Source of the DNA: Longimicrobiales bacterium
GTDB lineage: Bacteria > Gemmatimonadota > Gemmatimonadetes > Longimicrobiales > Gaopeijiaceae
Assembly: GCA_965248195.1 (NCBI GenBank)
Contig: CBDFIQ010000001.1
Location: 1,434,658-1,498,657, forward strand
Reading direction: 5' to 3'
Length of the DNA: 64,000 nucleotides
The notes below the pieces were generated by a model, which was not told where the DNA came from, did no database searches, and was given only the letters and a program-made list of their open reading frames with translations. How positions within the stretch are numbered: position 1 is the first letter of the stretch; every line of letters begins with the position of its first letter. The position numbers and the translations under genes are program-made. Shown here piece after piece: positions 13,983 through 49,252 of this stretch.

Positions 13983-13987
13983 CGGCT

Positions 13988-15058: not shown

Positions 15059-15156
15059 CGTTCCTCCCGTGGCTCAAGGGATAATCTGCTGGATCAACTC
15101 CTGGGCCTTCTCCCGGACCAACCCCTCCAACCTCTCCCAGCGGGACTGGCCTTGGG

Positions 15157-27429: not shown

Positions 27430-27681
27430 TCATCCCTCACCCCCCGCCAGCACCACGCGGGCGAGTTCGGCGAGCCTCCAATGCTCCCAGTCGCCGCCCC
27501 ATCGCTCGGCACGCTCCGTGTCACCGCCCCAGGAGTCGTACTCCGGTTCCATCTCGGGCGCGTCCCGGACGATCTCGCGCAGACACGCCAACATCTCCGG
27601 CGCGGCGGCGATCAGCCGGGCGTTCGCCCTGCAACGCTCCAGTGACAGGGCTTCGGGGGTCAGAGTGTGCGCCGCATTCAC
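27430..27681 (-). CDS. Phage hypothetical protein
   Basis: ANARLIAAAPEMLACL motif. Confidence 0.6.
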   Translation of the reverse strand: MNAAHTLTPEALSLERCRANARLIAAAPEMLACLREIVRDAPEMEPEYDSWGGDTERAERWGGDWEHWRLAELARVVLAGGEG

Positions 27682-27682
27682 G

Positions 27683-27985
27683 CTATTCGTTCCTTTTCCG
27701 CTTCCGCGTCGGTGCTGCGGGACGCGACGGTCCGCTGGGCAACTGAAGCACTGGTCCGTCTGCCGGACGCAGTTCAGCTATTTCAAACAGGTGCCGGGCC
27801 GTCGTGAGCGCGACATCCTGCAGGGGTCGCATCCGCAAGTAGCCGATCGGGCGGTGTGTGGCCTCGATGCTCGCGAGCGTCAGCCAGTGCTCGCCCTCTC
27901 GGTTCACGTTCTCCACGATCACCGTCGCCGTGCCAAACTCCGCGTCCTTGACGATCTGAATCCGGCCATGCTCGCCCGCACTCAT
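27683..27985 (-). CDS. Phage hypothetical protein (3' part contains the 112-bp repeat)
   Basis: Coupled to the cro-like gene by an ATGA overlap. Confidence 0.55.
   Translation of the reverse strand: MSAGEHGRIQIVKDAEFGTATVIVENVNREGEHWLTLASIEATHRPIGYLRMRPLQDVALTTARHLFEIAELRPADGPVLQLPSGPSRPAAPTRKRKRNE
27720..27831. repeat. 112-bp direct repeat, copy 2
   Basis: Identical to 26674-26785. Confidence 0.95.
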
Positions 27986-28221
27986 CCCTCACCCGCCAGC
28001 ACCCGCTCGCGCGCCTCGGTGGCCGCCTTCTCCGCCGCTTCGAGCCTGTCAAGCGTGGCGTTGACCCTGGCCTCGAAACCCTCGGGGGGGTCGCGACGAC
28101 CGTTCATGTAGGCGCTCAGAAGCGTCGGGTGAATCCCCAAGTACTCGGCGAGATCCACGTACCGAACGCCCATCTCAGCGATGCGGCCTCGGAGCCTAGA
28201 AAGCATAAGATTTCTTATCAT
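27982..28221 (-). CDS. Cro-like XRE HTH regulator
   Basis: DLAEYLGIHPTLLSAYMNG HTH; divergent from cI. Confidence 0.8.
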   Translation of the reverse strand: MIRNLMLSRLRGRIAEMGVRYVDLAEYLGIHPTLLSAYMNGRRDPPEGFEARVNATLDRLEAAEKAATEARERVLAGEG

Positions 28222-28228
28222 GGCGGCG

Positions 28229-28257
28229 ATAATAAGCACTCTTATGGCAAATGTCAA
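28229..28257 (-). promoter_or_regulatory. Consensus-like sigma70 promoter for cro (probably a leaderless mRNA)
   Basis: TTGACA-17 nt-TATTAT-7 nt-ATG(28221) on the minus strand. Confidence 0.75.
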
Positions 28258-28269
28258 TATCTTTGTTAC

Positions 28270-29145
28270 ATGGGATATTCGGATCGGCTCACGATCAGCG
28301 AGAGGACACGCCGTGTTAGGGGTGCGCGAAGTGCCAGCGATGTGGCGCGATCCGCAGGGATCGCTCAGGCGTCCATGTCGCAGTTTGAGCGAGCGGTGCA
28401 CGAACCGTTGGCGGGTACACTGAGCCGGATCGCCAAGGCGCTGAATGTAAGCTCGGATTACCTGGTTGGCCTGACCGACGACCCGACACCCGCCGACGAG
28501 AGAACACGTGAGGTCAACGACCGGGTACGTGAAGCTGAGGAGAGAGCAACCCGCGAAGCCGAGGAGCGAGCGCAGGAAGCCGAGGAGCGCGCCGAGGCGA
28601 CCGTTGCCCGGATACGCCGGGAGGAGGCGCGGAACCGCCAGCAGCTGGAGGCCGCGCTAGAACGCACCGAGGAGGAGCTGGAGCGGCTGCGGGCACGGGT
28701 GGGCCAGGTGGCGACTGACGGCCTTACGGACGAGACCGATCCCGACGCGGAGCCCATTCCGGTCCATCGACTCCAGACTGCGGCGGGCAGCGGCGCTTTC
28801 AACCTGGACGAGACGGTCAAGACCTACGCCTACTTTCGCAGCGAGTGGCTGTTCAGGAAGGGGCTCGCCGCCGACCGCTGTAACATCATCGGCGTCGCGG
28901 GAGAGTCGATGGATCCCACGCTGCCCGACGGCTGCGTCATCCTTGTCGACCGCAACCGAACCAAGCGGTACCGGGGACACATCTTCGTGGTACGCACGGA
29001 GGACGGCCTGGTGGTCAAGCGCGCGGGCAAGGACGAGGGCGGCGGCTGGCAGCTGGTTAGCGATCACCCTGAGTGGAAACCGCAGCCGTGGCCGGACGGA
29101 GCGGAGGTGATTGGAGAAGTGAAATGGATGGCGAGGGAGTTGTGA
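28270..29145 (+). CDS. CI-like repressor: XRE HTH, coiled coil and S24 peptidase
   Basis: HTH (DVARSAGIAQASMSQFER...VSSDYL), AAG cleavage site, GESMDP catalytic Ser and VVKR catalytic Lys. Confidence 0.9.
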   Translation: MGYSDRLTISERTRRVRGARSASDVARSAGIAQASMSQFERAVHEPLAGTLSRIAKALNVSSDYLVGLTDDPTPADERTREVNDRVREAEERATREAEERAQEAEERAEATVARIRREEARNRQQLEAALERTEEELERLRARVGQVATDGLTDETDPDAEPIPVHRLQTAAGSGAFNLDETVKTYAYFRSEWLFRKGLAADRCNIIGVAGESMDPTLPDGCVILVDRNRTKRYRGHIFVVRTEDGLVVKRAGKDEGGGWQLVSDHPEWKPQPWPDGAEVIGEVKWMAREL

Positions 29146-29246
29146 GGGGGCGCACCGAGGGTTTGGTTGAGCCTAACTTCTCTTGGGGTTTACCCCTTCC
29201 GGCGTACGAGCCGCAACCGCTCGACGATCGAGCCCGAATCATGGGC

Positions 29247-29273
29247 CGCGTCGTCTGGTGGGCGCACACGGAT
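29247..29273 (+). repeat. 27-bp repeat encoding a repressor-like C-terminus (RVVWWAHTD), copy 1
   Basis: CGCGTCGTCTGGTGGGCGCACACGGAT is identical at 37772-37798; 20 bp also match at 44811-44830. Confidence 0.9.
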
Positions 29274-31032
29274 CGGGGGTGAGTGTCAGTGCACCCTGGC
29301 CGGACATGATGCGAGATGTTTCACCAGCCGCGATCCCCCCCAGCGGTGAAGGAAGGGAGGGAGGGGCACGATGCGTAAGCTCGCAATTCTTCTGAGCATG
29401 GCGGCCAGCGCATCTTGTGCTGAGGCCACAACGGCCCCACAGGATGACGCAGGAGTTAACGAAGGAACGGTCGAATTCACGCTTACGAGATCCTCCGCCA
29501 GCGGCGCCCCGGTTGACGGTGCCACGCACGCGATCGTACGAGTGTGGAACCCCTCGTCTGGTTTCAACTTCGCTCAATCCGTTGCGATCCCTGACGCGAG
29601 CCAAAGCACCATGGTCACTATGCAGGCTCCAGCCCGCGATGGATATTCGGCTGGCGTACTCGCGGTGGACGGGCCGGTGGGGCCTTCAATACCCAATGTG
29701 TTGGCGGCCGGGATCACGGCCGGGATCACCGTCGTGAAAGATCAACAGACGGAAGCCGTCGTTTCGGTCGAGTCCTTGAGTGTCGAGCTAACCGAAGTGC
29801 CGGCGCTCTTGACGCCTGGTGAAGAGGCCACGATCCGAGGGCGAGTGATGGGAGCACCCATAGCTGCCGAAGGTCAAGTCCCGATTTGTGTGTAAAAGCG
29901 GAGGAAGCTCCTCGCCTTCGGCTAGGCTGCTTGGGCGACCTCCTGTTTCTGGAGGAGTGAGAGGTCGAGGTAACGCCGGTCGCCCCAGACGTGTGTGGTC
30001 CTGAGTGCGACGGCCGTGATGAGCCTGAGGGCGCTGGCCCGGTCCGGGAAGGCGCCGGCGGCCTTGATCCTGCGTTTGATCTCGCCGTGCAGCCGCTCGA
30101 GGCTGTTGGTGGTACGCAGCCGGGGCCAGTGCGCCTCGGGGAACGCGTAGAACTGCGTCGCTGCCCCGAAGCCCCGCTCCAGGACCTCCACGGCCTCGGG
30201 CAGCTCCTTCTTCCAGCGTGCGCCGAACTCGCCCAGGAGCTTCTTCGCCTCGGCGAGTCCGGATGTCTGGAAGATCACCGAGACCTCACGCGCCACGCGC
30301 TTGCGTAGGCGGTGGGGGACCCTCGCCCCCACATTACGCTGCAGATGGACCGTACACCTCTGACGGCGTGCCTCGGGCAGGAAGCGGCGGACCGCAGCTG
30401 CCAGGCCTGCGTGCTCATCGGCGATCACGAGCTCGACACCGCCGAGGCCGCGGTCCTGGAGTTGCTCGAGGAGCTCCGACCAGCTCTGCTGCGACTCCTC
30501 AGCGCCCAGCGTGACGGCCAGGAGCCGTCGGTGACCCTCAGGGCCCACTGCATACGCCACGAGCGCACTCACGTTCTCGACTTTGCGGGCCCAGCGGGCG
30601 TCCAAGAACGTGGCGTCCAGGTACAGATAGGGGTGAGGCCCCTCGATCGGCGCACGGCGCAGCCCTTCCACGGCCTCGTCGAGCCGTTTTGCCACACGAC
30701 TCACCGTCGAGCGCCCAACACGCTCGCCCATCAGCGCCTCGGTGACGTCGCCCATCTTGCGCTGTGACACGCCGCTCACATACGCCTCGACCATCATCTC
30801 GTCGAGCTCGGGGCTCCTGCGCTGGTAGCGGCCGATCACGTCGGCCGGCGAACCGTTGTCCCGGCTCCGGGGCATGGCGACCTCGATCTGCCCCAGGCTC
30901 GTCAGCAGCCGCCTCAGGTATGTGCCGTTCCTATGGTCCTTCCGGCTTCCCACCCGCTCGAAGCGGCGTGCACCTACCATGGCCTTCAGCTCCTCTTCCA
31001 GCACCATCTCGAGCGTCAGCCGGATCGCGCCT

Positions 31033-33984
31033 CCCTCTCTGCCAACGTACGTGAGACACGGAGCACGCAAAGAAGGTCAAGTCCCGATTTGTGTGTAAAA
31101 GCGGAGGAAGCTCCTCGCCTTCGGCTAGGCTGCTTGGGCGACCTCCTGTTTCTGGAGGAGTGAGAGGTCGAGGTAACGCCGGTCGCCCCAGACGTGTGTG
31201 GTCCTGAGTGCGACGGCCGTGATGAGCCTGAGGGCGCTGGCCCGGTCCGGGAAGGCGCCGGCGGCCTTGATCCTGCGTTTGATCTCGCCGTGCAGCCGCT
31301 CGAGGCTGTTGGTGGTACGCAGCCGGGGCCAGTGCGCCTCGGGGAACGCGTAGAACTGCGTCGCTGCCCCGAAGCCCCGCTCCAGGACCTCCACGGCCTC
31401 GGGCAGCTCCTTCTTCCAGCGTGCGCCGAACTCGCCCAGGAGCTTCTTCGCCTCGGCGAGTCCGGATGTCTGGAAGATCACCGAGACCTCACGCGCCACG
31501 CGCTTGCGTAGGCGGTGGGGGACCCTCGCCCCCACATTACGCTGCAGATGGACCGTACACCTCTGACGGCGTGCCTCGGGCAGGAAGCGGCGGACCGCAG
31601 CTGCCAGGCCTGCGTGCTCATCGGCGATCACGAGCTCGACACCGCCGAGGCCGCGGTCCTGGAGTTGCTCGAGGAGCTCCGACCAGCTCTGCTGCGACTC
31701 CTCAGCGCCCAGCGTGACGGCCAGGAGCCGTCGGTGACCCTCAGGGCCCACTGCATACGCCACGAGCGCACTCACGTTCTCGACTTTGCGGGCCCAGCGG
31801 GCGTCCAAGAACGTGGCGTCCAGGTACAGATAGGGGTGAGGCCCCTCGATCGGCGCACGGCGCAGCCCTTCCACGGCCTCGTCGAGCCGTTTTGCCACAC
31901 GACTCACCGTCGAGCGCCCAACACGCTCGCCCATCAGCGCCTCGGTGACGTCGCCCATCTTGCGCTGTGACACGCCGCTCACATACGCCTCGACCATCAT
32001 CTCGTCGAGCTCGGGGCTCCTGCGCTGGTAGCGGCCGATCACGTCGGCCGGCGAACCGTTGTCCCGGCTCCGGGGCATGGCGACCTCGATCTGCCCCAGG
32101 CTCGTCAGCAGCCGCCTCAGGTATGTGCCGTTCCTATGGTCCTTCCGGCTTCCCACCCGCTCGAAGCGGCGTGCACCTACCATGGCCTTCAGCTCCTCTT
32201 CCAGCACCATCTCGAGCGTCAGCCGGATCGCGCCTTGAAACAGCTCGCGCAAATCATCGCGTAGCTCGTCTTGCGTGGCCCGACCGATCTCCACAATCTC
32301 TTGCATCGGAAGCTCCTCTCCGGTTCCGAGCCTGCTCTGCAGACCCGGACTCCCGGGTTCATGTGACAGTGAACAACAACAGAGGAGCTTCCGTTTTTCT
32401 TTCCCTCCTGTCCAGCTTATCCGCTTTTACACAAATCTAGGGACACTACCCGCAAAGAATTAGAGTAGGGCGAAGGCAGAGAAAACGAACATGTTGGGAC
32501 TGCGAGAGAGAATGGAAGAGAATGGTAGTGCCCCTGGAATCGGGGAGGCCAAGCGAAGCGCGGCAGCTCCTGCGGACCCGGAGGTAGTAGATAGGCCGCT
32601 ACGCCGGCGGTTCAGTCCATCGTACAAGCTGCGGATCGTCGAAGAAGCGGACCGGTGCACCGAGCCCGGCGAGGTGGGTCAGCTCCTGCGGCGCGAGGGC
32701 CTGTACTCGTCGCACCTGACGACGTGGCGCAAGGCGGCGCATAGCGGGTCGCTGAAGGCCCTGTCGAAGAAACGCGGCCGCAAGCCGGAGCGGAATCCGC
32801 TGGATGAGAAGGTACGCAAGCTGGAGCGGCAAAACGCACGGCTCGAGAATGAGCTCAGGAAGGCACACCTGATCATCGACGTGCAGGGAAAAGTTGCGGG
32901 GCTGCTGGGGATAAGCCTCGACGACGGGACGAACTCTTGAAGGCGGCCGATGAGCTGGCTAAGCACGTCGGTGTAAAACCGGCGTGCGCGGCTCTCGAGG
33001 TCTCCCGATCGACGTTCTACCGTCGTCGAGGCCCATCGACCGGGCAACGGCAGCCCCGCCCGACGCCCGCCCGGGCATTGAGCGAGACGGAACGAGGCGA
33101 GGTCTTCGACACGCTGTGTTCGGAGCGGTTCGTGGACCGCTCACCCGCCGAGGTGGTGGCCACGCTGCTCGACGAAGAGGTCTACCTGTGCAGCGAACGC
33201 ACGATGTATCGTGTTCTGGCCTCCGAGGTGCCGGTTCAGGAACGCCGGGCGCAGCGCACCCATCCCGAGTACAAGAAGCCCGAGTTGATGGCCACGGCGC
33301 CGAACCAGGTGTGGTCCTGGGATATCACGCGGCTACTCGGGCCGAAGAAGTGGAGCTATTACTACCTCTACGTCATCATGGACATCTACAGCCGCTACGT
33401 CGTGGGCTGGATGGTGGCGGACCGGGAGAACTCGGCCCTGGCCGGCCGGTTGATCCAGCAGAGCTGCCTGAAGCATGGCGTCCAGCCCCGGGTCCTGACC
33501 CTGCACTCGGATCGGGGAGCTCCAATGACGAGCCAATGCACCGCTCAACTTCTCGCTGACCTCGGCGTGACTCGCTCGTTGAGCCGGCCTCAGGTGTCGG
33601 ATGACAACCCGTTTTCCGAGGCTCAGTTCAAAACCTTGAAGTACCATCCCTCGTTTCCCGGGCGGTTCGGGGATCAGGGCCAGGCCAAGACGTTGTGTCG
33701 ATCGTTCTTCCGCTGGTACAATGCCGAGCACCGCCATGGCGGTATCTCGATGCTAACCCCCGAGCAGGTCCACTTCGGGAACGCCGATCAGGTCATTGCC
33801 GGCAGGAAATCCGTGCTCCGCGAAGCATGGGCCGCTCATCCCGAACGCTTCGTCACAGGTGTGCCGAAGCCCAAACCGCTCCCGGAGGCCGTCTACATCA
33901 ATCCTCCCATCCCTTCCCTCACCACACAGGATATTGCTCTCTAATTAATCCCGTAGAGTGTCCCATTGTCGTTGACAGGTTCCG
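31033..33984 (+). mobile_element. IS3-family copy interrupted by IS256 near its left end
   Basis: 3-bp TSD CCT; orfA 32491-32940 and orfB 32937-33944 (WSWDIT, HSDRG, DNPFSE). Confidence 0.95.
31075..32450 (-). mobile_element. IS256 copy (intact; transposase 31125-32306)
   Basis: 9-bp TSD CGCAAAGAA; 1376 bp. Confidence 0.96.
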
Positions 33985-34410
33985 CCTTGAAACAGCTCGC
34001 GCAAATCATCGCGTAGCTCGTCTTGCGTGGCCCGACCGATCTCCACAATCTCTTGCATCGGAAGCTCCTCTCCGGTTCCGAGCCTGCTCTGCAGACCCGG
34101 ACTCCCGGGTTCATGTGACAGTGAACAACAACAGAGGAGCTTCCGTTTTTCTTTCCCTCCTGTCCAGCTTATCCGCTTTTACACAAATCTAGGGACACTA
34201 CCGCTGCCGAACGCTTTGGAGTGACGCTCTGTATTAGGACGGAGAAGTTTTCGGCGAGCCCCTGCGCCGCGGCAACCGCCCCAGGCGGAACGCTAACGGA
34301 GGCCGATTTCTCGGTGACTTTCAACGCCCCTACTGCGTTGGCGGATACGGCCGCATGGTTTCAATTCGTCTTTGGCGTCGACGGTAGAGACACGTGGTGG
34401 CCTGACGGGA

Positions 34411-35977
34411 CCCTCTCTGCCAACGTACGTGAGACACGGAGCACGCAAAGAATTAGAGTAGGGCGAAGGCAGAGAAAACGAACATGTTGGGACTGCGAGA
34501 GAGAATGGAAGAGAATGGTAGTGCCCCTGGAATCGGGGAGGCCAAGCGAAGCGCGGCAGCTCCTGCGGACCCGGAGGTAGTAGATAGGCCGCTACGCCGG
34601 CGGTTCAGTCCATCGTACAAGCTGCGGATCGTCGAAGAAGCGGACCGGTGCACCGAGCCCGGCGAGGTGGGTCAGCTCCTGCGGCGCGAGGGCCTGTACT
34701 CGTCGCACCTGACGACGTGGCGCAAGGCGGCGCATAGCGGGTCGCTGAAGGCCCTGTCGAAGAAACGCGGCCGCAAGCCGGAGCGGAATCCGCTGGATGA
34801 GAAGGTACGCAAGCTGGAGCGGCAAAACGCACGGCTCGAGAATGAGCTCAGGAAGGCACACCTGATCATCGACGTGCAGGGAAAAGTTGCGGGGCTGCTG
34901 GGGATAAGCCTCGACGACGGGACGAACTCTTGAAGGCGGCCGATGAGCTGGCTAAGCACGTCGGTGTAAAACCGGCGTGCGCGGCTCTCGAGGTCTCCCG
35001 ATCGACGTTCTACCGTCGTCGAGGCCCATCGACCGGGCAACGGCAGCCCCGCCCGACGCCCGCCCGGGCATTGAGCGAGACGGAACGAGGCGAGGTCTTC
35101 GACACGCTGTGTTCGGAGCGGTTCGTGGACCGCTCACCCGCCGAGGTGGTGGCCACGCTGCTCGACGAAGAGGTCTACCTGTGCAGCGAACGCACGATGT
35201 ATCGTGTTCTGGCCTCCGAGGTGCCGGTTCAGGAACGCCGGGCGCAGCGCACCCATCCCGAGTACAAGAAGCCCGAGTTGATGGCCACGGCGCCGAACCA
35301 GGTGTGGTCCTGGGATATCACGCGGCTACTCGGGCCGAAGAAGTGGAGCTATTACTACCTCTACGTCATCATGGACATCTACAGCCGCTACGTCGTGGGC
35401 TGGATGGTGGCGGACCGGGAGAACTCGGCCCTGGCCGGCCGGTTGATCCAGCAGAGCTGCCTGAAGCATGGCGTCCAGCCCCGGGTCCTGACCCTGCACT
35501 CGGATCGGGGAGCTCCAATGACGAGCCAATGCACCGCTCAACTTCTCGCTGACCTCGGCGTGACTCGCTCGTTGAGCCGGCCTCAGGTGTCGGATGACAA
35601 CCCGTTTTCCGAGGCTCAGTTCAAAACCTTGAAGTACCATCCCTCGTTTCCCGGGCGGTTCGGGGATCAGGGCCAGGCCAAGACGTTGTGTCGATCGTTC
35701 TTCCGCTGGTACAATGCCGAGCACCGCCATGGCGGTATCTCGATGCTAACCCCCGAGCAGGTCCACTTCGGGAACGCCGATCAGGTCATTGCCGGCAGGA
35801 AATCCGTGCTCCGCGAAGCATGGGCCGCTCATCCCGAACGCTTCGTCACAGGTGTGCCGAAGCCCAAACCGCTCCCGGAGGCCGTCTACATCAATCCTCC
35901 CATCCCTTCCCTCACCACACAGGATATTGCTCTCTAATTAATCCCGTAGAGTGTCCCATTGTCGTTGACAGGTTCCG
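34411..35977 (+). mobile_element. IS3-family element, intact, 1567 bp (orfA 34484-34933, orfB 34930-35937)
   Basis: 3-bp TSD GGA; inverted repeats TGCCAACGTACGTGAGACAC / TGTCAACGACAATGGGACAC; G GGA AAA -1 slippery site joins orfA to the orfB frame. Confidence 0.96.
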
Positions 35978-36166
35978 GGAATCTGGCAGCCGTATTGCGG
36001 ATCCCCTCACTTGTCCTGGGGGACACGCTTTTCCGATTGCCTCTTGAGGTGAACACCGGAGGGATCTCCATCATCTTCTGATGACCCTCCGCGACTGGAC
36101 CGACCCCCGCCCCACGGACGACCAACGGATTTGAATGGGTGAAGCCCGGCAACCGCGAGAAGGGCC

Positions 36167-37740
36167 TTGGCTACTTTGGCCGCCGCATCTGTGGGCCGGG
36201 AAGACGTTGCGGGGATCAAGGTGAGGCGGAACAGCAAGGCTATTACCAAACTCAAGGCTGATGCAGAGCATCTGCTCGACAACTATCGTGAGACGGTAAC
36301 GACCCTCGCGATAATGGAGCCGATGGTGTCCAACAGCGCCGTGCGAGAGTCGTGCGGCCGCGGCGATGCGCACTGGGGCTTCCTAATCGTGCGTAGCACT
36401 CTTTTCCTCAACGTGGTTCTGCGTATTGCCAAGCTTGTCTTTGATAAATATTCCAGTACTCCGAGTGTCCATACGATCGTGGATGAAGTCATGCATCCCG
36501 GGGTAGCCGGGATTCTGAAGAACGAATACGTGGATGGGTACTGTGCCGTCGACTCTTCGAGCGATAGATCGCTTCACGAGGGTGAGTTTGACAGCCACTT
36601 GAACGAACTGCGGTCCCTAGCACAGGAAGTCAAAGCCGATCCGTTGTTCCTGTGCGCAAAGAAGGTGCGAGACAAGTCCATTGCTCACTGGGAAGTGGTA
36701 TATAGGAACGGCAAGTATGAGTTATATGATATTAGCCAACACGACCTGAAGTGGACATCACCGCGAGACATGATTGAGAGGCTTAGGCCGGTCATTCACA
36801 AGGTTAGTCTAGGGTCTGTTAACACTAAGGGCAATTTGTAGTATATTGGGGCTATGAAAATCACAGAGTCCCAATATCGTCGGATAGAGGCTTGCTTTCC
36901 GCATCAGCGCGGCAATGTGAGCATCTCCAATCTCGAAGTGCTTAACGCGATCCTGTATGTGGCCGAACACGGCTGCAAATGGCGGGGGTTGCCTCCGCGT
37001 TTCGGTAACTGGCATACGATCTACACCCGAATGAATCGCTGGGCCAGGGCAGGTGTGCTGGATCGTGTCTTTGCGGCCCTGCAAGACGAGCAAATTATCC
37101 GGATCAAGATCCAAGCTCTGTCGATCGACAGTACCATCGTCAAGGTGCACCCTGATGGCACCGGCGCTCTAAAAAAAACGGCCCGCAGGCCATCGGCAAG
37201 TCGCGTGGAGGCTGGACCACCAAGATTCATATGGTTGCCGCAGATGCTCGAACCGCGATAACCTTCTCGCTATCGCCAGGCCACAAGCACGACGCGCCGG
37301 AAGGACGGGAACTGCTACGCACGTTGAAGCCGGTACATTCCACAGTGTCCATGATCATGGACCGGGCGTACGAGGGGGGCGAAACACGGCAATTGGTGTT
37401 GGAGCTGGGGTTTACGCCGGTCGTGCCACCCAAGCAGGGCCGTGTTAACCCGTGGCAGTATGACCGAGTCATGTATCGCCGTCGTAACGAAATAGAGCGG
37501 TTATTTCGGCGACTCAAAGGCTTCAGAAGAATCTTCTCCCGCTTTGACAAGCTCGACGTGATGTTTACCGCCTTCATCCACTTCGCGCTCATCGTCGAAG
37601 CCCTCAGATAGTGTTAACAGGCCCTAGTAGTCCGCGGTGCGTCATTCGAGTGGGAATCCCTCAAATCCGGTAGTGAAGGCATAGCTGACGGCTACTGGGC
37701 GGCGGCGTGTGCCGCTGGACAGCACGACGCAGCCCCCTGA
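36167..37740 (+). pseudogene. AbiU2-like HEPN-domain protein (about 252 aa when rejoined), split by IS5
   Basis: LRIAKLVFD...S and VRDKSIAH (Rx4H) motifs; 36167-36811 joins 37627-37740 in frame after the TA duplication is removed. Confidence 0.7.
36812..37624 (+). mobile_element. IS5-family (IS427-like) element with two ORFs (36854-37261, 37231-37611)
   Basis: Inverted repeats GGGTCTGTTAACACTA / TAGTGTTAACAGGCCC; TA duplication in a CTAG site; A8 slippery run; GCKWR.LP and IERLFRRLK motifs. Confidence 0.93.
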
Positions 37741-37771
37741 AGACCGCCGCCGCTGCTGAGAGATGGTGGGT

Positions 37772-37798
37772 CGCGTCGTCTGGTGGGCGCACACGGAT
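37772..37798 (+). repeat. 27-bp repressor-tail repeat, copy 2 (EMVGRVVWWAHTDKG*)
   Basis: Identical to 29247-29273. Confidence 0.9.
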
Positions 37799-37807
37799 AA
37801 GGGGTGA

Positions 37808-40568
37808 GGTCAAGTCCCGATTTGTGTGTAAAAGCGGAGGAAGCTCCTCGCCTTCGGCTAGGCTGCTTGGGGGTCAAGTCCCGATTTGTGTGTAAAAGCG
37901 GAGGAAGCTCCTCGCCTTCGGCTAGGCTGCTTGGGCGACCTCCTGTTTCTGGAGGAGTGAGAGGTCGAGGTAACGCCGGTCGCCCCAGACGTGTGTGGTC
38001 CTGAGTGCGACGGCCGTGATGAGCCTGAGGGCGCTGGCCCGGTCCGGGAAGGCGCCGGCGGCCTTGATCCTGCGTTTGATCTCGCCGTGCAGCCGCTCGA
38101 GGCTGTTGGTGGTACGCAGCCGGGGCCAGTGCGCCTCGGGGAACGCGTAGAACTGCGTCGCTGCCCCGAAGCCCCGCTCCAGGACCTCCACGGCCTCGGG
38201 CAGCTCCTTCTTCCAGCGTGCGCCGAACTCGCCCAGGAGCTTCTTCGCCTCGGCGAGTCCGGATGTCTGGAAGATCACCGAGACCTCACGCGCCACGCGC
38301 TTGCGTAGGCGGTGGGGGACCCTCGCCCCCACATTACGCTGCAGATGGACCGTACACCTCTGACGGCGTGCCTCGGGCAGGAAGCGGCGGACCGCAGCTG
38401 CCAGGCCTGCGTGCTCATCGGCGATCACGAGCTCGACACCGCCGAGGCCGCGGTCCTGGAGTTGCTCGAGGAGCTCCGACCAGCTCTGCTGCGACTCCTC
38501 AGCGCCCAGCGTGACGGCCAGGAGCCGTCGGTGACCCTCAGGGCCCACTGCATACGCCACGAGCGCACTCACGTTCTCGACTTTGCGGGCCCAGCGGGCG
38601 TCCAAGAACGTGGCGTCCAGGTACAGATAGGGGTGAGGCCCCTCGATCGGCGCACGGCGCAGCCCTTCCACGGCCTCGTCGAGCCGTTTTGCCACACGAC
38701 TCACCGTCGAGCGCCCAACACGCTCGCCCATCAGCGCCTCGGTGACGTCGCCCATCTTGCGCTGTGACACGCCGCTCACATACGCCTCGACCATCATCTC
38801 GTCGAGCTCGGGGCTCCTGCGCTGGTAGCGGCCGATCACGTCGGCCGGCGAACCGTTGTCCCGGCTCCGGGGCATGGCGACCTCGATCTGCCCCAGGCTC
38901 GTCAGCAGCCGCCTCAGGTATGTGCCGTTCCTATGGTCCTTCCGGCTTCCCACCCGCTCGAAGCGGCGTGCACCTACCATGGCCTTCAGCTCCTCTTCCA
39001 GCACCATCTCGAGCGTCAGCCGGATCGCGCCTTGAAACAGCTCGCGCAAATCATCGCGTAGCTCGTCTTGCGTGGCCCGACCGATCTCCACAATCTCTTG
39101 CATCGGAAGCTCCTCTCCGGTTCCGAGCCTGCTCTGCAGACCCGGACTCCCGGGTTCATGTGACAGTGAACAACAACAGAGGAGCTTCCGTTTTTCTTTC
39201 CCTCCTGTCCAGCTTATCCGCTTTTACACAAATCTAGGGACACTACCCTGCTTGGGCGACCTCCTGTTTCTGGAGGAGTGAGAGGTCGAGGTAACGCCGG
39301 TCGCCCCAGACGTGTGTGGTCCTGAGTGCGACGGCCGTGATGAGCCTGAGGGCGCTGGCCCGGTCCGGGAAGGCGCCGGCGGCCTTGATCCTGCGTTTGA
39401 TCTCGCCGTGCAGCCGCTCGAGGCTGTTGGTGGTACGCAGCCGGGGCCAGTGCGCCTCGGGGAACGCGTAGAACTGCGTCGCTGCCCCGAAGCCCCGCTC
39501 CAGGACCTCCACGGCCTCGGGCAGCTCCTTCTTCCAGCGTGCGCCGAACTCGCCCAGGAGCTTCTTCGCCTCGGCGAGTCCGGATGTCTGGAAGATCACC
39601 GAGACCTCACGCGCCACGCGCTTGCGTAGGCGGTGGGGGACCCTCGCCCCCACATTACGCTGCAGATGGACCGTACACCTCTGACGGCGTGCCTCGGGCA
39701 GGAAGCGGCGGACCGCAGCTGCCAGGCCTGCGTGCTCATCGGCGATCACGAGCTCGACACCGCCGAGGCCGCGGTCCTGGAGTTGCTCGAGGAGCTCCGA
39801 CCAGCTCTGCTGCGACTCCTCAGCGCCCAGCGTGACGGCCAGGAGCCGTCGGTGACCCTCAGGGCCCACTGCATACGCCACGAGCGCACTCACGTTCTCG
39901 ACTTTGCGGGCCCAGCGGGCGTCCAAGAACGTGGCGTCCAGGTACAGATAGGGGTGAGGCCCCTCGATCGGCGCACGGCGCAGCCCTTCCACGGCCTCGT
40001 CGAGCCGTTTTGCCACACGACTCACCGTCGAGCGCCCAACACGCTCGCCCATCAGCGCCTCGGTGACGTCGCCCATCTTGCGCTGTGACACGCCGCTCAC
40101 ATACGCCTCGACCATCATCTCGTCGAGCTCGGGGCTCCTGCGCTGGTAGCGGCCGATCACGTCGGCCGGCGAACCGTTGTCCCGGCTCCGGGGCATGGCG
40201 ACCTCGATCTGCCCCAGGCTCGTCAGCAGCCGCCTCAGGTATGTGCCGTTCCTATGGTCCTTCCGGCTTCCCACCCGCTCGAAGCGGCGTGCACCTACCA
40301 TGGCCTTCAGCTCCTCTTCCAGCACCATCTCGAGCGTCAGCCGGATCGCGCCTTGAAACAGCTCGCGCAAATCATCGCGTAGCTCGTCTTGCGTGGCCCG
40401 ACCGATCTCCACAATCTCTTGCATCGGAAGCTCCTCTCCGGTTCCGAGCCTGCTCTGCAGACCCGGACTCCCGGGTTCATGTGACAGTGAACAACAACAG
40501 AGGAGCTTCCGTTTTTCTTTCCCTCCTGTCCAGCTTATCCGCTTTTACACAAATCTAGGGACACTACC
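37808..40568 (-). mobile_element. IS256 copy with another IS256 inserted near its right end (transposase 39243-40424)
   Basis: The pieces sum to 1376 bp; flanks AGGGGTGA / CGGGGTGA form an imperfect TSD. Confidence 0.93.
37872..39247 (-). mobile_element. IS256 copy nested in IS256 (transposase 37922-39103)
   Basis: 9-bp TSD CTGCTTGGG; 1376 bp. Confidence 0.96.
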
Positions 40569-41131
40569 CGGGGTGAGGGGGTGGGGAGTCAGGTCATGTG
40601 GAGGACGCTGTGAGCCGGACGCGACACCTGGTGCAGCCGTACCGTGAGGTTGAAGAAGCGTTACTTGCAGGGCGGTCACCCGCGGGGTGGTCGTTCTCGT
40701 GTTCAGCGATGATCTGTCCACGGCTACGGCACCCTGGCTTCCCCAGCCAAGAAACCAAGTCCCGCCTCTCGCTGTGCCTCGGCTGCTTGCTCGATTCCGA
40801 GGCAAGCGCGATTGTTGACTATGGTACCTTGGGTCGATTTTGCAGACGTGGACGACAGCGAAGACTTCTTGCCCTTTAGGGAAGACAAGGCGACACAGGT
40901 TGCATCCCGCTTCATCGAGAAAGAGGGCGGGAGCATTCGCATCCTCAAGCTCGTCAAGCTGGTGTACCTCACGGACCGCACGAGTCTGCTGCGATTCGGC
41001 AGGCCAGTGACTTTTGACGAATTCTACTCCTTGCCCTACGGCCCCATTCCGAGTTCGACGCTCGACCGCATCAACTCTTATGGGTTCGAGGACTCTGTCT
41101 GGAAGCGGTTCATCAGCCTACGCGAGGGGAA

Positions 41132-44100
41132 CGGAACCTGTCAACGACAATGGGACACTCTACGGGATTAATTAGAGAGCAATATCCTGTGTGGTGAGGG
41201 AAGGGATGGGAGGATTGATGTAGACGGCCTCCGGGAGCGGTTTGGGCTTCGGCACACCTGTGACGAAGCGTTCGGGATGAGCGGCCCATGCTTCGCGGAG
41301 CACGGATTTCCTGCCGGCAATGACCTGATCGGCGTTCCCGAAGTGGACCTGCTCGGGGGTTAGCATCGAGATACCGCCATGGCGGTGCTCGGCATTGTAC
41401 CAGCGGAAGAACGATCGACACAACGTCTTGGCCTGGCCCTGATCCCCGAACCGCCCGGGAAACGAGGGATGGTACTTCAAGGTTTTGAACTGAGCCTCGG
41501 AAAACGGGTTGTCATCCGACACCTGAGGCCGGCTCAACGAGCGAGTCACGCCGAGGTCAGCGAGAAGTTGAGCGGTGCATTGGCTCGTCATTGGAGCTCC
41601 CCGATCCGAGTGCAGGGTCAGGACCCGGGGCTGGACGCCATGCTTCAGGCAGCTCTGCTGGATCAACCGGCCGGCCAGGGCCGAGTTCTCCCGGTCCGCC
41701 ACCATCCAGCCCACGACGTAGCGGCTGTAGATGTCCATGATGACGTAGAGGTAGTAATAGCTCCACTTCTTCGGCCCGAGTAGCCGCGTGATATCCCAGG
41801 ACCACACCTGGTTCGGCGCCGTGGCCATCAACTCGGGCTTCTTGTACTCGGGATGGGTGCGCTGCGCCCGGCGTTCCTGAACCGGCACCTCGGAGGCCAG
41901 AACACGATACATCGTGCGTTCGCTGCACAGGTAGACCTCTTCGTCGAGCAGCGTGGCCACCACCTCGGCGGGTGAGCGGTCCACGAACCGCTCCGAACAC
42001 AGCGTGTCGAAGACCTCGCCTCGTTCCGTCTCGCTCAATGCCCGGGCGGGCGTCGGGCGGGGCTGCCGTTGCCCGGTCGATGGGCCTCGACGACGGTAGA
42101 ACGTCGATCGGGAGACCTCGAGAGCCGCGCACGCCGGTTTTACACCGACGTGCTTAGCCAGCTCATCGGCCGCCTTCAAGAGTTCGTCCCGTCGTCGAGG
42201 CTTATCCCCAGCAGCCCCGCAACTTTTCCCTGCACGTCGATGATCAGGTGTGCCTTCCTGAGCTCATTCTCGAGCCGTGCGTTTTGCCGCTCCAGCTTGC
42301 GTACCTTCTCATCCAGCGGATTCCGCTCCGGCTTGCGGCCGCGTTTCTTCGACAGGGCCTTCAGCGACCCGCTATGCGCCGCCTTGCGCCACGTCGTCAG
42401 GTGCGACGAGTACAGGCCCTCGCGCCGCAGGAGCTGACCCACCTCGCCGGGCTCGGTGCACCGGTCCGCTTCTTCGACGATCCGCAGCTTGTACGATGGA
42501 CTGAACCGCCGGCGTAGCGGCCTATCTACTACCTCCGGGTCCGCAGGAGCTGCCGCGCTTCGCTTGGCCTCCCCGATTCCAGCGGAACCTGTCAACGACA
42601 ATGGGACACTCTACGGGATTAATTAGAGAGCAATATCCTGTGTGGTGAGGGAAGGGATGGGAGGATTGATGTAGACGGCCTCCGGGAGCGGTTTGGGCTT
42701 CGGCACACCTGTGACGAAGCGTTCGGGATGAGCGGCCCATGCTTCGCGGAGCACGGATTTCCTGCCGGCAATGACCTGATCGGCGTTCCCGAAGTGGACC
42801 TGCTCGGGGGTTAGCATCGAGATACCGCCATGGCGGTGCTCGGCATTGTACCAGCGGAAGAACGATCGACACAACGTCTTGGCCTGGCCCTGATCCCCGA
42901 ACCGCCCGGGAAACGAGGGATGGTACTTCAAGGTTTTGAACTGAGCCTCGGAAAACGGGTTGTCATCCGACACCTGAGGCCGGCTCAACGAGCGAGTCAC
43001 GCCGAGGTCAGCGAGAAGTTGAGCGGTGCATTGGCTCGTCATTGGAGCTCCCCGATCCGAGTGCAGGGTCAGGACCCGGGGCTGGACGCCATGCTTCAGG
43101 CAGCTCTGCTGGATCAACCGGCCGGCCAGGGCCGAGTTCTCCCGGTCCGCCACCATCCAGCCCACGACGTAGCGGCTGTAGATGTCCATGATGACGTAGA
43201 GGTAGTAATAGCTCCACTTCTTCGGCCCGAGTAGCCGCGTGATATCCCAGGACCACACCTGGTTCGGCGCCGTGGCCATCAACTCGGGCTTCTTGTACTC
43301 GGGATGGGTGCGCTGCGCCCGGCGTTCCTGAACCGGCACCTCGGAGGCCAGAACACGATACATCGTGCGTTCGCTGCACAGGTAGACCTCTTCGTCGAGC
43401 AGCGTGGCCACCACCTCGGCGGGTGAGCGGTCCACGAACCGCTCCGAACACAGCGTGTCGAAGACCTCGCCTCGTTCCGTCTCGCTCAATGCCCGGGCGG
43501 GCGTCGGGCGGGGCTGCCGTTGCCCGGTCGATGGGCCTCGACGACGGTAGAACGTCGATCGGGAGACCTCGAGAGCCGCGCACGCCGGTTTTACACCGAC
43601 GTGCTTAGCCAGCTCATCGGCCGCCTTCAAGAGTTCGTCCCGTCGTCGAGGCTTATCCCCAGCAGCCCCGCAACTTTTCCCTGCACGTCGATGATCAGGT
43701 GTGCCTTCCTGAGCTCATTCTCGAGCCGTGCGTTTTGCCGCTCCAGCTTGCGTACCTTCTCATCCAGCGGATTCCGCTCCGGCTTGCGGCCGCGTTTCTT
43801 CGACAGGGCCTTCAGCGACCCGCTATGCGCCGCCTTGCGCCACGTCGTCAGGTGCGACGAGTACAGGCCCTCGCGCCGCAGGAGCTGACCCACCTCGCCG
43901 GGCTCGGTGCACCGGTCCGCTTCTTCGACGATCCGCAGCTTGTACGATGGACTGAACCGCCGGCGTAGCGGCCTATCTACTACCTCCGGGTCCGCAGGAG
44001 CTGCCGCGCTTCGCTTGGCCTCCCCGATTCCAGGGGCACTACCATTCTCTTCCATTCTCTCTCGCAGTCCCAACATGTTCGTTTTCTCTGCCTTCGCCCT

Positions 44101-44268
44101 ACTCTAATTCTTTGCGTGCTCCGTGTCTCACGTACGTTGGCAGAGAGGGCAGGGGCACTACCATTCTCTTCCATTCTCTCTCGCAGTCCCAACATGTTCG
44201 TTTTCTCTGCCTTCGCCCTACTCTAATTCTTTGCGTGCTCCGTGTCTCACGTACGTTGGCAGAGAGGG
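41132..44268 (-). mobile_element. IS3 copy (outer) interrupted in orfA by an identical IS3
   Basis: TSD GAA; the pieces sum to 1567 bp. Confidence 0.95.
42583..44149 (-). mobile_element. IS3 copy nested in IS3
   Basis: TSD CAG; 1567 bp; orfA 43627-44076, orfB 42623-43630. Confidence 0.96.
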
Positions 44269-44737
44269 GAACACGGTAAGGCTCGTCGCTCCGGCTAAAC
44301 CTTCGGATCTGTCGAAGGCGGAGGTAGACCTTATCGACGAGGTCTGGGACGAGTATGGGCGCATTGATGTTGTCGAATACAGCCACCAACTGCCGGAGTG
44401 GGAACATCCCCAGGAGAAAGGAAGGCTTAGGATCAGATACGCAGACATCCTGAAAGCGGAAGGGTGGCCTGCAGATGAAATATCCGAACTCTTAGGGGTG
44501 CTGAAGGCAGAGAAGGTAGCAACCGACCTCCTGGGATGAATGAACAGGGGCCCGTTGCGTTGCGTATGTGTAGGTACAATATTGCAGGTGCGGCCCCACC
44601 AGGTACCGAACCCCCTAACCATCTTAGGGTGAGCGCCGCCACGAAACGGCGAATAGGGCCTGGGGGGCCATGCCCGGCTCATTGATGTGGATTTGCTAGC
44701 AGCGCGGGGCTTGGAAGCTCATGGTTCACCGGCTCGC

Positions 44738-44797
44738 CCGTGGCCCGAAGACGCCATTGTGCGCGGCGAGGTCATGTGGGCTGGGAAGATGCTGTGA
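44738..44797 (+). pseudogene. Remnant of an S24 repressor C-terminus (PWPEDAIVRGEVMWAGKML*)
   Basis: Aligns with the intact CI end PWPDGAEVIGEVKWMAREL*. Confidence 0.7.
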
Positions 44798-44823
44798 CGG
44801 AGAAGATGCAGCCGCGTCGTCTG

Positions 44824-45388
44824 GTGGGCGAAGTCCACCTGGCCCTGACGCCCAGGCGCCGTCTCGAAGCGCACGACCGGCTCCTCTGGGGGTCGAGGCC
44901 GGACCTTGCGTACATAGCGCTTCACTTTGGTTGTAACTGCCCGGGTAGCCAGCGGCCCGGACCTCCTTGAAGAGCCGTACAGCCGTGAGCTTCGGGTACT
45001 CCTTGAGACGCGTGTCGATCAACGGCTTGTACGGATCCAGCTTCGACGGCATCAGACATCTCGGACCGTACCCGACACGCTCTTCGTCCAACTCCCGGTC
45101 CAGTTGACCGGTCTCTATCCAGTGGTACACGGTACGGCGACTGACCCCCAGATCCCGGGCGATCACCGCCTTGTTCATCCCCTGCTCGAGGTAATGACGG
45201 AGCAGCACGCGCTTCTCCCTTCCGATCATTGCACCTCCACGTTCGCGGTGGAGGCGCCAAGTGAGTGGATCGGCCGGAAGATCGCTCGGGGTGGTGCCTA
45301 CATCCCCACTCTCCCGCCCGCTAGGTCAAAGCGCCAAGTGTGCAATTTTCGATGGCCACATGTGTGCAATATTGGAAGGCCGCTAACA
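44824..45388 (-). mobile_element. istA: Truncated IS21-family element (left end plus frameshifted istA 5' part)
   Basis: End TGTTAGCGGCC with repeated ATTGCACAC boxes; N-terminal HTH, SKLDPYK and RFETAPGRQGQVDFAH, then the sequence breaks. Confidence 0.85.
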
Positions 45389-45454
45389 CCCTAGGTGCGA
45401 TTCCGGATCACGTACGAATTCATGAGAAGTGACACTGACATATAACACTAGATT

Positions 45455-45487
45455 GACCCCCGTTCCGGACTTCCCCGGGCGGGGGTC
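45455..45487. terminator. GC-rich hairpin, possible terminator downstream of darT
   Basis: GACCCCCG...CGGGGGTC stem followed by gagtctttt. Confidence 0.45.
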
Positions 45488-46115
45488 GAGTCTTTTCGGT
45501 TCCTCTCGGGAAGGTCCCCACTTCAGCGAGTCCAGATCCCATACAAGAAATCCCATTGATATACGCTCCTCTCGGTACGGTTAGGGTCCGAGGGAAGTGT
45601 ACTCGGGTTGGTGGGGCGTTGGGATGGCTGGATCGGCCGTGTTTAGAACGGAAGATCATCGTCGATAGTGATCATGCCCCTATATGCCAGACAACCGTCG
45701 ATATGGATCGTAACGCGTACGAGGCCATGGCTTCCGGGGAGTCTGATCGAGGTTCTTTCTTTGTGTACAGGTATGCTCCCGTGCCAATTCATTTGCGACG
45801 GTTCGTTGCCGAAGGATTTGAACCACACAGAAATCGGAACCTCAGTGTAGACGGGTCGTGGGAGGTCGATATCCACAAGATTTCCTTCTCGCCCCGACAC
45901 GTTTTCAACGTAGGGCCACCGCCGCTGGAACAATCCGGCGAACCCAGTACCGATTCTATTTGCCCAGGCACCGTATGGTCCCTTGTTCAGTCCCTGTAGG
46001 AGCGTCGTTCTCTCCGCAGCACTACGACAGTAAATGGCTTTGAGTTCGGGGCCCAAAGAGATGCTCCCTGGTATGACCACCTCCGCGTGCCGAGCCTTCT
46101 TGATTTCCGCCTTTC

Positions 46116-49100: not shown

Positions 49101-49252
49101 CGCTCATCCCGAACGCTTCGTCACAGGTGTGCCGAAGCCCAAACCGCTCCCGGAGGCCGTCTACATCAATCCTCCCATCCCTTCCCTCACCACACAGGAT
49201 ATTGCTCTCTAATTAATCCCGTAGAGTGTCCCATTGTCGTTGACAGGTTCCG
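46116..49252 (+). mobile_element. IS3 copy (outer) interrupted in orfA by IS3; carries two substitutions relative to the other copies
   Basis: TSD TTC; C>T at 48651 and 49089. Confidence 0.95.
46252..47818 (+). mobile_element. IS3 copy nested in IS3
   Basis: TSD AAG; 1567 bp. Confidence 0.96.

Follow-up and report, generated by a model that had tools for sequence, protein, structure and literature searches.

Orphan 3′ ends of repressor genes between prophage accessory genes: candidate scars of repressor displacement

Introduction

How does a prophage come to carry unrelated accessory genes in a row behind its repressor gene, with pieces of other repressors between them? The question is raised by a stretch of 64,000 nucleotides (nt) from a Longimicrobiales bacterium (assembly GCA_965248195.1, contig CBDFIQ010000001.1, positions 1,434,658 to 1,498,657), here called the window. 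In it, an intact cI repressor gene is followed on the same strand by short fragments coding for S24-type C-termini, which we call orphan tails, and cargo genes lie between the tails. A first-pass annotation made from the letters alone listed five such fragments. It proposed that incoming phage DNA had recombined repeatedly in the cI 3′ end, each time leaving an old tail behind. A paper on prophage hotspots has called for more work on the recombination pathway (PMC9122126), and whether phage mosaic boundaries fall at homologies or at random is an old debate (PMC3945230); here and below, published work is cited from the parts of each paper accessible to us. Our reading, to which we give a probability of about 0.65, is that the tails are scars of repeated repressor-gene displacement that later serve as reusable short homologies.

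Results

Fragments behind cI match the ends of phage cI genes

The genome measures 4.86 Mb, and the window forms the end of its contig C1. The repressor gene and the tails are arranged as follows.

28270 to 29145, plus strand: intact cI, C-terminal clade A (HTH_3 and Peptidase_S24 matches)
29202 to 29284, plus strand: orphan tail 1, clade B, translated as AYEPQPLDDRARIMGRVVWWAHTDRG and stop (profile)
36190 to 36224, plus strand: degenerate clade-C tail, absent from the first-pass annotation (alignment with prophage L001 and the intact cI of locus L080)
37760 to 37807, plus strand: orphan tail 2, clade B, translated as EMVGRVVWWAHTDKG and stop (profile)
40578 to 40613, plus strand: orphan tail 3, clade C, short, with QVMWRTL and stop at 40590 to 40613 (DNA profile)
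44737 to 44797, plus strand: orphan tail 4, clade C, 61 nt, with PWPEDAIVRGEVMWAGKML and stop at 44738 to 44797
44811 to 44832, plus strand: orphan tail 5, clade B, 20 to 23 nt, RVVWWA (DNA profile)

The Peptidase_S24 match of the intact repressor reaches model position 115 of 116, and its Ala-Gly site and Ser/Lys dyad are both conserved. The C-terminal 60 residues encoded by each of the four intact phage cI genes in this genome served to build a protein profile, which was run against 166,192 stop-anchored six-frame peptides. Ten non-training matches had E<0.05, all within prophage DNA; the first match outside had E 0.57. Tail 1 scored E 1.4e-11 and tail 2 E 0.014. In this search the fragments at 44738 and 44811 scored E 2.1 and 13, and the one at 40590 was not among the matches listed. 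The tails at 40590 and 44738 could be assigned with the help of L080, an intact clade-C cI of genome G131; the stretch 44737 to 44797 matched this gene at E 8e-8. DNA profiles over 13 arrays gave 1.2e-9 (44737), 0.046 (40578) and 0.1 (44810, clade B), the clade-C profile being built from one intact gene and two long remnants. The scan with an S24 C-terminal profile suggested in the first-pass annotation thus recovered two of the five fragments, and the other three emerged only with the clade-C cI and the DNA profiles. By these sequence matches, all five are confirmed as genuine 3′ ends of phage cI genes, and their coordinates and translations hold. The degenerate tail at 36190 was recognized by alignment and has no score in the 13-array profiles; its stop overlaps the probable GTG start of the downstream AbiU2 gene. 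Tail 5 is cut by a remnant of an IS21-family insertion sequence (IS; 44824 to 45362).

With the ISs set aside, the order in the window is cI (clade A), B tail, lipoprotein-like gene, degenerate C tail, AbiU2 gene, B tail, C tail, Panacea gene, C tail, B tail. The tails at 37760 and 40590 adjoin once the intervening IS256 pair is removed, and they do so in the IS-free sibling prophage L002. Stacks without a gene between them occur in both orders, B then C and C then B.

Tails 1 and 2 share exactly 27 identical bases (29247 to 29273 and 37772 to 37798), as had been reported. A genome-wide repetitive extragenic palindromic (REP)-like repeat was ruled out as their source, again in agreement with the earlier proposal. 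The 20-nt clade-B core, with up to two mismatches, has 15 copies in the 4.86 Mb, at six places and in prophage DNA only, all on one strand at each place. Four prophages account for 11 copies, which lie downstream of an intact cI; two more are part of intact genes and two lie elsewhere in prophage DNA. Three shuffled genomes contained 0, 2 and 0 copies. An 8-mer in the tails, which we take to resemble the Chi site of E. coli, occurs at 1.29-fold the expected frequency (rank 8,444 of 65,511), and a Chi-like hotspot was ruled out.

Tails and repressor domains are mosaic

The cI C-terminal domains fall into three clades that share 34 to 48% of residues. Clade A comprises the window and L002; clade B, L001, L003, L019, L020, L081 and L082; and clade C, L080. 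None of the five scored window tails shares clade A with the window cI; all are B or C. Many tails are 95 to 100% identical to intact cI genes of other prophages. Tail 1, for instance, matches the intact cI of L001 over 70 nt at 98.6% and starts 56 nt behind the clade-A gene. Across nine arrays, 15 of 31 orphan tails belong to the clade of the upstream intact cI and 16 to a different one.

Pairwise identities among eight cI proteins showed that the two halves of the repressor have discordant histories, as had been predicted. The window and L002 proteins are 19% identical in the helix-turn-helix (HTH) part and 98% in the C-terminal domain, and L080 and L081 show the reverse pattern (66% and 35%). 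The linker between the two is conserved, and the domains are shuffled around it. Thus, the N- and C-terminal parts of cI evolve independently as judged from these comparisons, in the manner described for rhs genes. Simple homologous recombination in the cI 3′ end is insufficient, because 16 of the 31 tails are off-clade and the clades share only 34 to 48% of residues. The earlier proposal therefore stands as to displaced cI ends and needs amending as to simple homologous exchange; the sequences indicate that whole C-terminal domains or whole repressor modules are exchanged. In another repressor family, the complete genome G016 holds nine near-identical S24 repressor genes (L060 to L068).

Cassettes change at the tails in close kin

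Repressor-tail arrays are present in four prophages of the same genome and in kin. A 155-nt clade-B query matched 10 of 314 family genomes at E≤0.001, five of them (own genome included, four genera) below 1e-6; two candidates were scored per genome, and most of these genomes are fragmented. The arrays in genomes G005 and G131 have one to seven scored tails each, except L081, which has none. Tail lengths in kin range from 20 to 144 nt, and overall from 20 to about 290 nt.

Several pairs read as before and after. L020 carries a zinc-ribbon/amidohydrolase cassette directly after its intact cI. In L003 the same cassette (99%) sits after a lipoprotein gene and a 140-nt orphan tail, and L019 has this lipoprotein gene and tail followed by other genes. 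The Panacea cassette of the window recurs in L002 and the AbiU2 cassette in L001, and tails bound each in at least one partner; the start of tail 2 coincides with the start of the next gene in L001. The ends of blocks shared among close kin lay within 30 nt of a tail or cI end in 12 of 28 cases versus 3.1 expected, a value reached in 0 of 10,000 random draws. The test used eight blocks, two reverse blocks and edge ends having been dropped; the ends are few, non-independent and counted in both partners, so that it is indicative. By manual reading of the block table, eight of the ten outer ends of five shared cassettes are at tails, and the other two are the two sides of one deletion between L003 and L020. 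Tails that start at cargo stops (as in L003, L092 and L174) gave a weak signal that was left unused (21 of 63 within 30 nt, null share 0.21).

Tails also occur away from cI. A second variable region of the window's own prophage (L005), upstream of the terminase and on the late-gene strand, has a HicAB pair between two clade-B tails (6694 to 7457; C2:3349.7 to 3350.5 kb). In L004, a clade-B tail (6554 to 6627) with a leader and a lipoprotein gene comes straight after the lysis genes and shares their strand, the reverse of the usual arrangement, and no cI was found within about 20 kb. L083 and L084 have stacks of a C and a B tail and no S24 gene upstream. Tail-bounded cassettes thus leave the cI operon, since the tails of these four loci lie away from cI, which suits the reading of tails as linkers more than strict accretion at cI.

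When public contigs were aligned to L002, depth in X1, possibly the source sample, was about 595 in tail bins versus 21 to 37 in unique cargo. In the runs of three further studies, the tails and some toxin-antitoxin genes were covered, and little other cargo. Tail-to-tail joints with sides of 21 to 40 nt were seen in metagenome contigs; they may stem from other prophages and were not used as proof of excision.

Arrays occur in the same repressor family across phyla

Homologs of the clade-A domain number 262. A search with 52 of them aligned retrieved 80 genome loci (the best 80 of 214), from Acidobacteriota, Dehalococcoidia, Ca. Binatia and Gammaproteobacteria, and 28 viral loci. The last 120 nt of each cI gene were pooled as queries against 106 loci, two frameshifted loci having been dropped. 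Across 24 of the 106 loci, 41 matches lay downstream on the cI strand, against one upstream and one on the other strand. With control windows from the gene interior, eight and seven downstream matches were obtained, largely long remnants. In 21 of the loci, 37 of the 41 downstream matches end within 10 nt of the stop and are shorter than 300 nt; these loci come from 12 genomes (10 Acidobacteriota, one Dehalococcoidia, one Binatia) and one viral contig. A further 19 binned internal-only matches in 11 loci were also listed.

Clear multi-tail arrays are present in L092 and L162. Seven elements (L129, L112, L114, L120, L130, L132 and L135) have an intact cI end followed by an integrase, and both parts have their counterpart in L133, where the cI end is an orphan tail. 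Likewise, a tail and its downstream DNA in L108, L124 and L166 match the intact cI end and downstream DNA of L111. In this wider set, 11 of 63 shared-block ends lay at tails or cI ends versus 7.7 expected, which was not significant (1,419 of 10,000 draws); the blocks shared across phyla are mostly old and end far from the array. The claim that cargo breakpoints coincide with tails was thus borne out among close kin and gained no significant support across phyla.

Outside the family, distant S24 repressors had an own-gene tail in one of 49 loci (49 of 53 examined, 39 with at least 2 kb downstream). This tail sits between two small genes, at what looks like the end of a Mu-like prophage. Twenty kin S24 loci with LexA-like repressors or repressors of another family (L060 to L079) yielded no orphan by protein search, and no nucleotide self-tail test was applied to them. 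Annotated phages gave 175 records with a distant match. The clade-B core DNA pattern had no match in viral_contigs or metagenome_contigs, and single cI proteins found no locus in viral_contigs. Short-read metagenome contigs gave three downstream matches in 48 loci (49 of 59 given, one without a stop), many of which are too short to judge. By these searches, tail arrays are strong in the repressor family of the window and rare, not absent, outside it.

These data bear on a reading in which each tail is an inert scar of one rare repressor replacement, passively carried, with turnover by ordinary recombination and deletion and breakpoints that merely mark the original junction. The non-significant test across phyla would fit it, as would the L003/L020 deletion away from tails, the erosion of many tails to 20 to 45 nt, which is short for recombination, and degenerate tails such as that at 36190. 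Inert scars do not account well for a cassette that follows intact cI in L020 and an orphan tail in L003, for one tail junction with different cargo in L003 and L019, for near-identity of tails to intact genes of other prophages, or for tail-bounded cassettes near the terminase. We consider this explanation unlikely, at odds of about one in five.

Candidate recombination enzymes lie to the left of the repressor

Left of cI, the prophage carries its integrase, a tRNA-Met gene, a probable annealing protein, exonuclease VIII and a Cro-like gene, all on the minus strand. Rightward of the Cro-like gene follow cI on the plus strand, the variable region and then DarTG, endolysin, holin-like and tail-region genes on the minus strand. 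The window holds the left part of this prophage. The end of contig C2 overlaps the window end by 1,117 identical bases in reverse orientation and carries the portal, terminase and further genes of the same prophage. The features outside the array are the following.

19679 to 20947, minus strand: tyrosine integrase of the prophage (PF00589, phrog_1)
23253 to 24422, minus strand: probable single-strand annealing recombinase of Rad52/Red-beta-like fold, 389 residues (structure model)
24317 to 25453, minus strand: exonuclease VIII (RecE-like PDDEXK nuclease), adjoining the annealing protein (PF12684; phrog_412, E 3e-51)
27982 to 28401, minus strand: frame with Cro-like HTH gene, divergent from cI (HTH_31/HTH_3, residues 69 to 109)
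49209 to 50665, minus strand: DarTG pair in the same variable region, on the strand opposite to the tails, with no adjoining tail (family matches, PADLOC)
53091 to 54432, minus strand: endolysin and holin-like gene, the far border of the variable region (profile matches)

The structure model of the 389-residue protein has a predicted local distance difference test (pLDDT) score of 82. Its best Foldseek match in the PDB was RAD52 (E 9e-3), and named viral matches were Rad52/ERF proteins (E 2e-4 to 1e-3). Superposition gave Z 6.2 with the C-terminal domain of VIA Red-beta (root-mean-square deviation 2.9, 55 aligned) and Z 5.5 with RAD52 (5.3, 138 aligned), the N-terminal part of the model resembling RAD52 and the C-terminal part the Red-beta C-terminal bundle. 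Each score is middling and they are mutually consistent, so that the protein is probably a Rad52/Red-beta-like annealing protein. Together with exonuclease VIII, it would be the likely catalyst of tail exchange. The protein belongs to a very large phage family (1,850 matches among 8,000 candidates scored; phrog_3657; no Pfam), which the model suggests to be an unannotated Rad52/Red-beta-like annealing family.

The integrase has copies 96 to 99.8% identical in sibling prophages, and at least five near-identical copies in its own genome. It has no TIGR02249 match at E≤1e-5, and the integrases of L162 and L133 scored 45.5 and 51.1 bits against this integron integrase model, whose cut-off is 265. 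Judging from these scores, no integron integrase is involved in the arrays, in line with the proposal of an array without a dedicated integrase.

In a rival model, the cI 3′ end is an attachment site where a tyrosine recombinase, either the phage integrase or a host integron-like enzyme, inserts circles and duplicates the site, as islands do at tRNA 3′ ends. The right ends of tails do cluster at the stop codon, clade-B tails have a well-kept core with a variable spot of 3 to 4 nt just before the stop, and some Vicinamibacterales elements carry an integrase behind the array. A fixed right end is equally predicted by displacement. The tails fall into three unrelated sequences of widely varying length; a scan of 29000 to 29950 found no inverted repeat of at least 12 nt at tail 1, and among 11 clade-B ends none of 12 predicted pairs showed a compensatory change, which argues against a conserved hairpin in clade-B ends. 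A fixed attachment site is therefore unlikely on account of the three sequence classes, the variable left ends, the absence of hairpin covariation and the lack of an integron integrase; we regard it as highly improbable.

The Cro-like gene probably has its true start near 28220. Short repeats lie at the ends of small early genes left of cro (L002 3360 to 4500; window 27425 to 28060), which suggests from sequence a second repeat-linked gene row on the lytic side. The DarG-DarT order is seen at 49209 to 50665; DarT is short (182 amino acids [aa]), adjoins an IS3 boundary at 49258 and may be truncated.

The cargo is mixed and interrupted by insertion sequences

Cargo genes and ISs of the window array are given below.

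29371 to 29871, 34212 to 34410 and 35981 to 36081, plus strand: lipoprotein-like cargo gene in three pieces (alignment across breaks)
29872 to 35977, no strand given: nested IS256-family and IS3-family elements with target duplications (blast, alignments)
36221 to 37740, plus strand: HEPN AbiU2 cargo gene (PF18734, E 3.5e-16)
37806 to 40573, no strand given: IS256-family copies between tails 2 and 3 (blast, alignments)
40812 to 44539, plus strand: Panacea (SocA-like) antitoxin gene (PF13274)

All three plus-strand cargo genes are interrupted by ISs. The lipoprotein-like gene (266 codons across the breaks, no Pfam or NCBIfam match) is split by IS256 and IS3 elements, the AbiU2 gene is broken near its end by an IS5-family element (36809 to 37629), and the Panacea gene is split by IS3-family elements (41132 to 44270) and intact in L002 at 99 to 100% identity. 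Multi-copy IS DNA makes up about 12.4 of the 16.4 kb around the array, leaving 3,958 nt. The nesting of IS256 and IS3 is extreme at 29872 to 49258, with up to about 160 blast matches genome-wide; IS-free siblings exist.

A scan of 64 cargo reading frames, some of them in the variable region and not directly behind a tail, gave Pfam matches to RelE/HigB, HicAB, Gp49/addiction antidotes, Panacea and RelA/SpoT. Further matches were to C5 and N6 methylases, a Bpu10I-type endonuclease, GIY-YIG, HAD, amidohydrolase, Bor, Excalibur and ankyrin, and 26 of the 64 frames had no Pfam match. PADLOC reported DarTG, restriction-modification (RM), PDC-S33, PDC-S34 and PDC-M19B. The cargo thus appears from family matches to mix toxin-antitoxin, RM and HEPN genes with lipoproteins, membrane proteins and unknowns; the array of defence and moron genes proposed earlier stands for the former and has to be widened for the latter. 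Phage defence is a candidate function, by matches to HEPN_AbiU2, RM, DarTG, PDC-S33, PDC-S34 and PDC-M19B. The gene next after cI is often a lipoprotein or membrane protein, in the position where exclusion genes are known to lie. Variable cargo lies between conserved phage genes, as in a prophage defence hotspot. In L020, a Bpu10I-type endonuclease (10082 to 10939) takes its stop codon and last 16 residues from a cI tail, an in-frame fusion.

Could each cargo gene need the cI end as a leader, for a promoter, a ribosome-binding or a processing signal? In many tails the stop, in purine-rich sequence, overlaps the start of the next gene or comes shortly before it (36221 to 36224; L174). A leader role fits poorly with tails stacked without a gene between them, with three sequence classes, with the missing structural covariation and with a sigma-70 scan of L002, in which three promoter-like sites were found versus 1.7 expected, none inside a tail. 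In that scan, whose consensus may not be that of the host, some cassettes have a promoter-like site of their own. We hold the leader explanation to be highly improbable.

Other repeats accompany the cargo. A repeated leader, made of a C-run and then a G/A-rich ribosome site, stands before lipoprotein-like genes that come next to cI or to a tail (window 29323 to 29370; L001 5950 to 5995 and 10176 to 10225; L002 6739 to 6780; L004 6708 to 6755). It has eight near-matches genome-wide, five of them in these arrays, and by its sequence the C-run could pair with the ribosome site. A second repeat of 26 nt begins at cargo-gene stops (window 36081 to 36107; L002 7579 to 7606 and 8140 to 8166); its three copies in the genome are all within arrays. 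A third shared element of 37 to 190 nt has five copies in prophage variable regions (window 44575 to 44685; L002 10154; L003 9820; C2:3023127; C2:2561188) and could be a small RNA or another linker. Among single cargo proteins, L004 encodes a 458-aa protein with S1 domains and a weak score against ribosomal protein S1 models (7537 to 8913, minus strand) and an ankyrin-repeat protein (13061 to 14038). L082 has a long tandem-repeat secreted protein directly behind cI (region 14679 to 16112, minus strand), presumably Sel1-like by eye.

Discussion

The anatomy of the arrays, the clade identity and polarity of the tails, the breakpoints among close kin and the mosaicism of HTH and C-terminal domains were observed directly. 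From these we propose the following course. An incoming segment would carry a different repressor allele or C-terminal domain with its own downstream gene. Its left anchor would be homology in the conserved linker after the HTH or in early genes further left, and its right joint would fall within the resident cI, at a point without homology or with microhomology. The incoming cI would be whole, and the last 20 to 200 nt of the old one would remain with the old downstream genes. A left anchor with a non-homologous right joint, the route proposed for Vibrio type VI secretion system (T6SS) arrays, explains the off-clade tails. Circle crossovers at the cI end, as proposed for rhs, fit the same-clade tails and neither the 16 of 31 off-clade ones nor a clade-B tail that lies 56 nt behind a clade-A gene.

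In a second step, tails would recombine with the intact cI end or with tails in the array of a co-resident prophage. Tail-bounded cassettes would thereby be gained, lost and re-ordered, with exonuclease VIII and the Rad52-like protein as likely catalyst. Unequal crossover between a donor tail and the recipient's intact cI end would give a longer array, and the reverse a shorter one. Finally, arrays would grow if selection favored a new immunity specificity and new cargo and the old downstream DNA was retained, be it old cargo or, in Vicinamibacterales elements, the integrase. The enzymes, the direction of single events and expression of the cargo together with cI are proposals.

Several points weigh against tails as displacement scars and reusable homologies. 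No tail was found in 82 of the 106 loci, and the block-end test across phyla was not significant. The close-kin permutation value overstates, the ends being few, doubly counted and kin-derived. The loss of the RM genes in L003 relative to L020 occurred at a 5-nt microhomology, 42 and 169 nt from tails. Tails in L004, L005, L083 and L084 have no upstream S24 repressor. The annealing-protein assignment rests on Z 5.5 to 6.2, and the recombination module of the sibling prophages is a different one. For a single prophage, the data demonstrate neither an excised circle nor a product of tail-to-tail joining.

A broader version, which we advance tentatively and rate at somewhat under an even chance, is a cassette system without an integrase in a family of temperate phages across several bacterial phyla, with the conserved repressor 3′ end as recombination site. 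Tails would propagate themselves through immunity switching, a phage annealing recombinase would add, drop and re-order defence and surface genes expressed in lysogeny, and cassettes would reach other sites of the phage genome. If true, immunity switching and cargo gain would form one coupled process, and the tails would be a barcode for finding new defence and exclusion genes.

Displacement with reuse of the tails would let phages accumulate and exchange accessory and defence genes with no need of a dedicated cassette enzyme, and it bears on how prophage hotspots gain unrelated genes while keeping old ones. It would link immunity switching to cargo gain. Dozens of small uncharacterized genes are already marked as candidates for defence or superinfection exclusion. 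The junctions are legible: each carries a datable, classifiable piece of a repressor, and several siblings in one genome form before-and-after pairs. In the literature searched, mostly without subscription papers and supplements, no description of repressor-tail arrays was found.

The closest parallels are displacement arrays of toxin genes, from which the displacement model is here extended to a phage regulatory gene. In rhs loci, 3′ fragments of differing length, each with genes downstream of it, trail an intact gene in the same direction; the core evolves separately from the C-terminus, displaced ends move downstream and single crossovers of circles have been proposed (Jackson et al. 2009, PMC2935791). 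Similarly, same-strand 3′ fragments of the intact gene's family lie behind cI, they vary in length and are anchored at the 3′ end (37 of 41 as above), and ends that are part of a whole gene in one locus stand alone in another, together with the DNA that follows them (L003/L020, L133/L129, L108/L111). In rhs, as far as the accessible text goes, the displaced piece is the payload, a toxin tip, and no fragment falls outside the clade of the intact gene. Here it is a short conserved repressor end, the payload is unrelated cargo, 15 tails are of the same and 16 of a different clade, and an HTH-S24 repressor takes the place of a polymorphic toxin tip with cognate immunity gene. In the T6SS arrays of Vibrio cholerae, an incoming module takes the place of the resident gene, spares the downstream genes and may leave behind the 3′ end of its predecessor; the authors propose homology-facilitated illegitimate recombination and, after it, ordinary homologous exchange, and the parts of that paper available to us name no known integrase (Kirchberger et al. 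2017, PMC5361080). Replacement of a module that leaves the old end and downstream genes is common to both. Those arrays are chromosomal, with toxin/immunity pairs and cognate logic, whereas ours lie in a prophage lysogeny module with mixed cargo and an annealing system nearby.

Short repeats between unrelated genes also serve as exchange points within hypervariable regions of T4-like phages, as promoter early stem-loops (PeSL; Comeau et al. 2014, PMC4122927). The PeSL are promoter-terminator elements of lytic phages, and the tails are coding repressor remnants in temperate phages. Rad52-like recombinases exchange short, diverged homologies between phages and co-resident prophages (De Paepe et al. 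2014, PMC3945230), which supplies a likely enzyme class; substrates there are longer, 700 bp counting as short, and a role on tails of 20 to 140 nt is proposed only. As in integrons, small cassettes stand in order behind one promoter region and older ones are pushed back. Unlike integrons, the arrays have no IntI, no attC-like hairpin in the tail 1 region and clade-B ends that were checked, and repeats of variable length.

By location, the arrays resemble the cI-integrase hotspot of defence genes in Vibrionaceae (Rousset et al. 2022, PMC9122126) and the central variable region beside the repressor in cluster N phages (PMC6544188). Common to them are the site, between the repressor and either the lysis genes or the integrase, a high turnover of cargo, and toxin-antitoxin, RM and Abi content. 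In the accessible portions of these two papers, exchange is ascribed to conserved flanks or cos ends and repressor fragments go unmentioned. Thus, the array is neither a toxin system nor an integron nor a REP element; it works like the rhs and T6SS displacement arrays and is sited like prophage defence hotspots.

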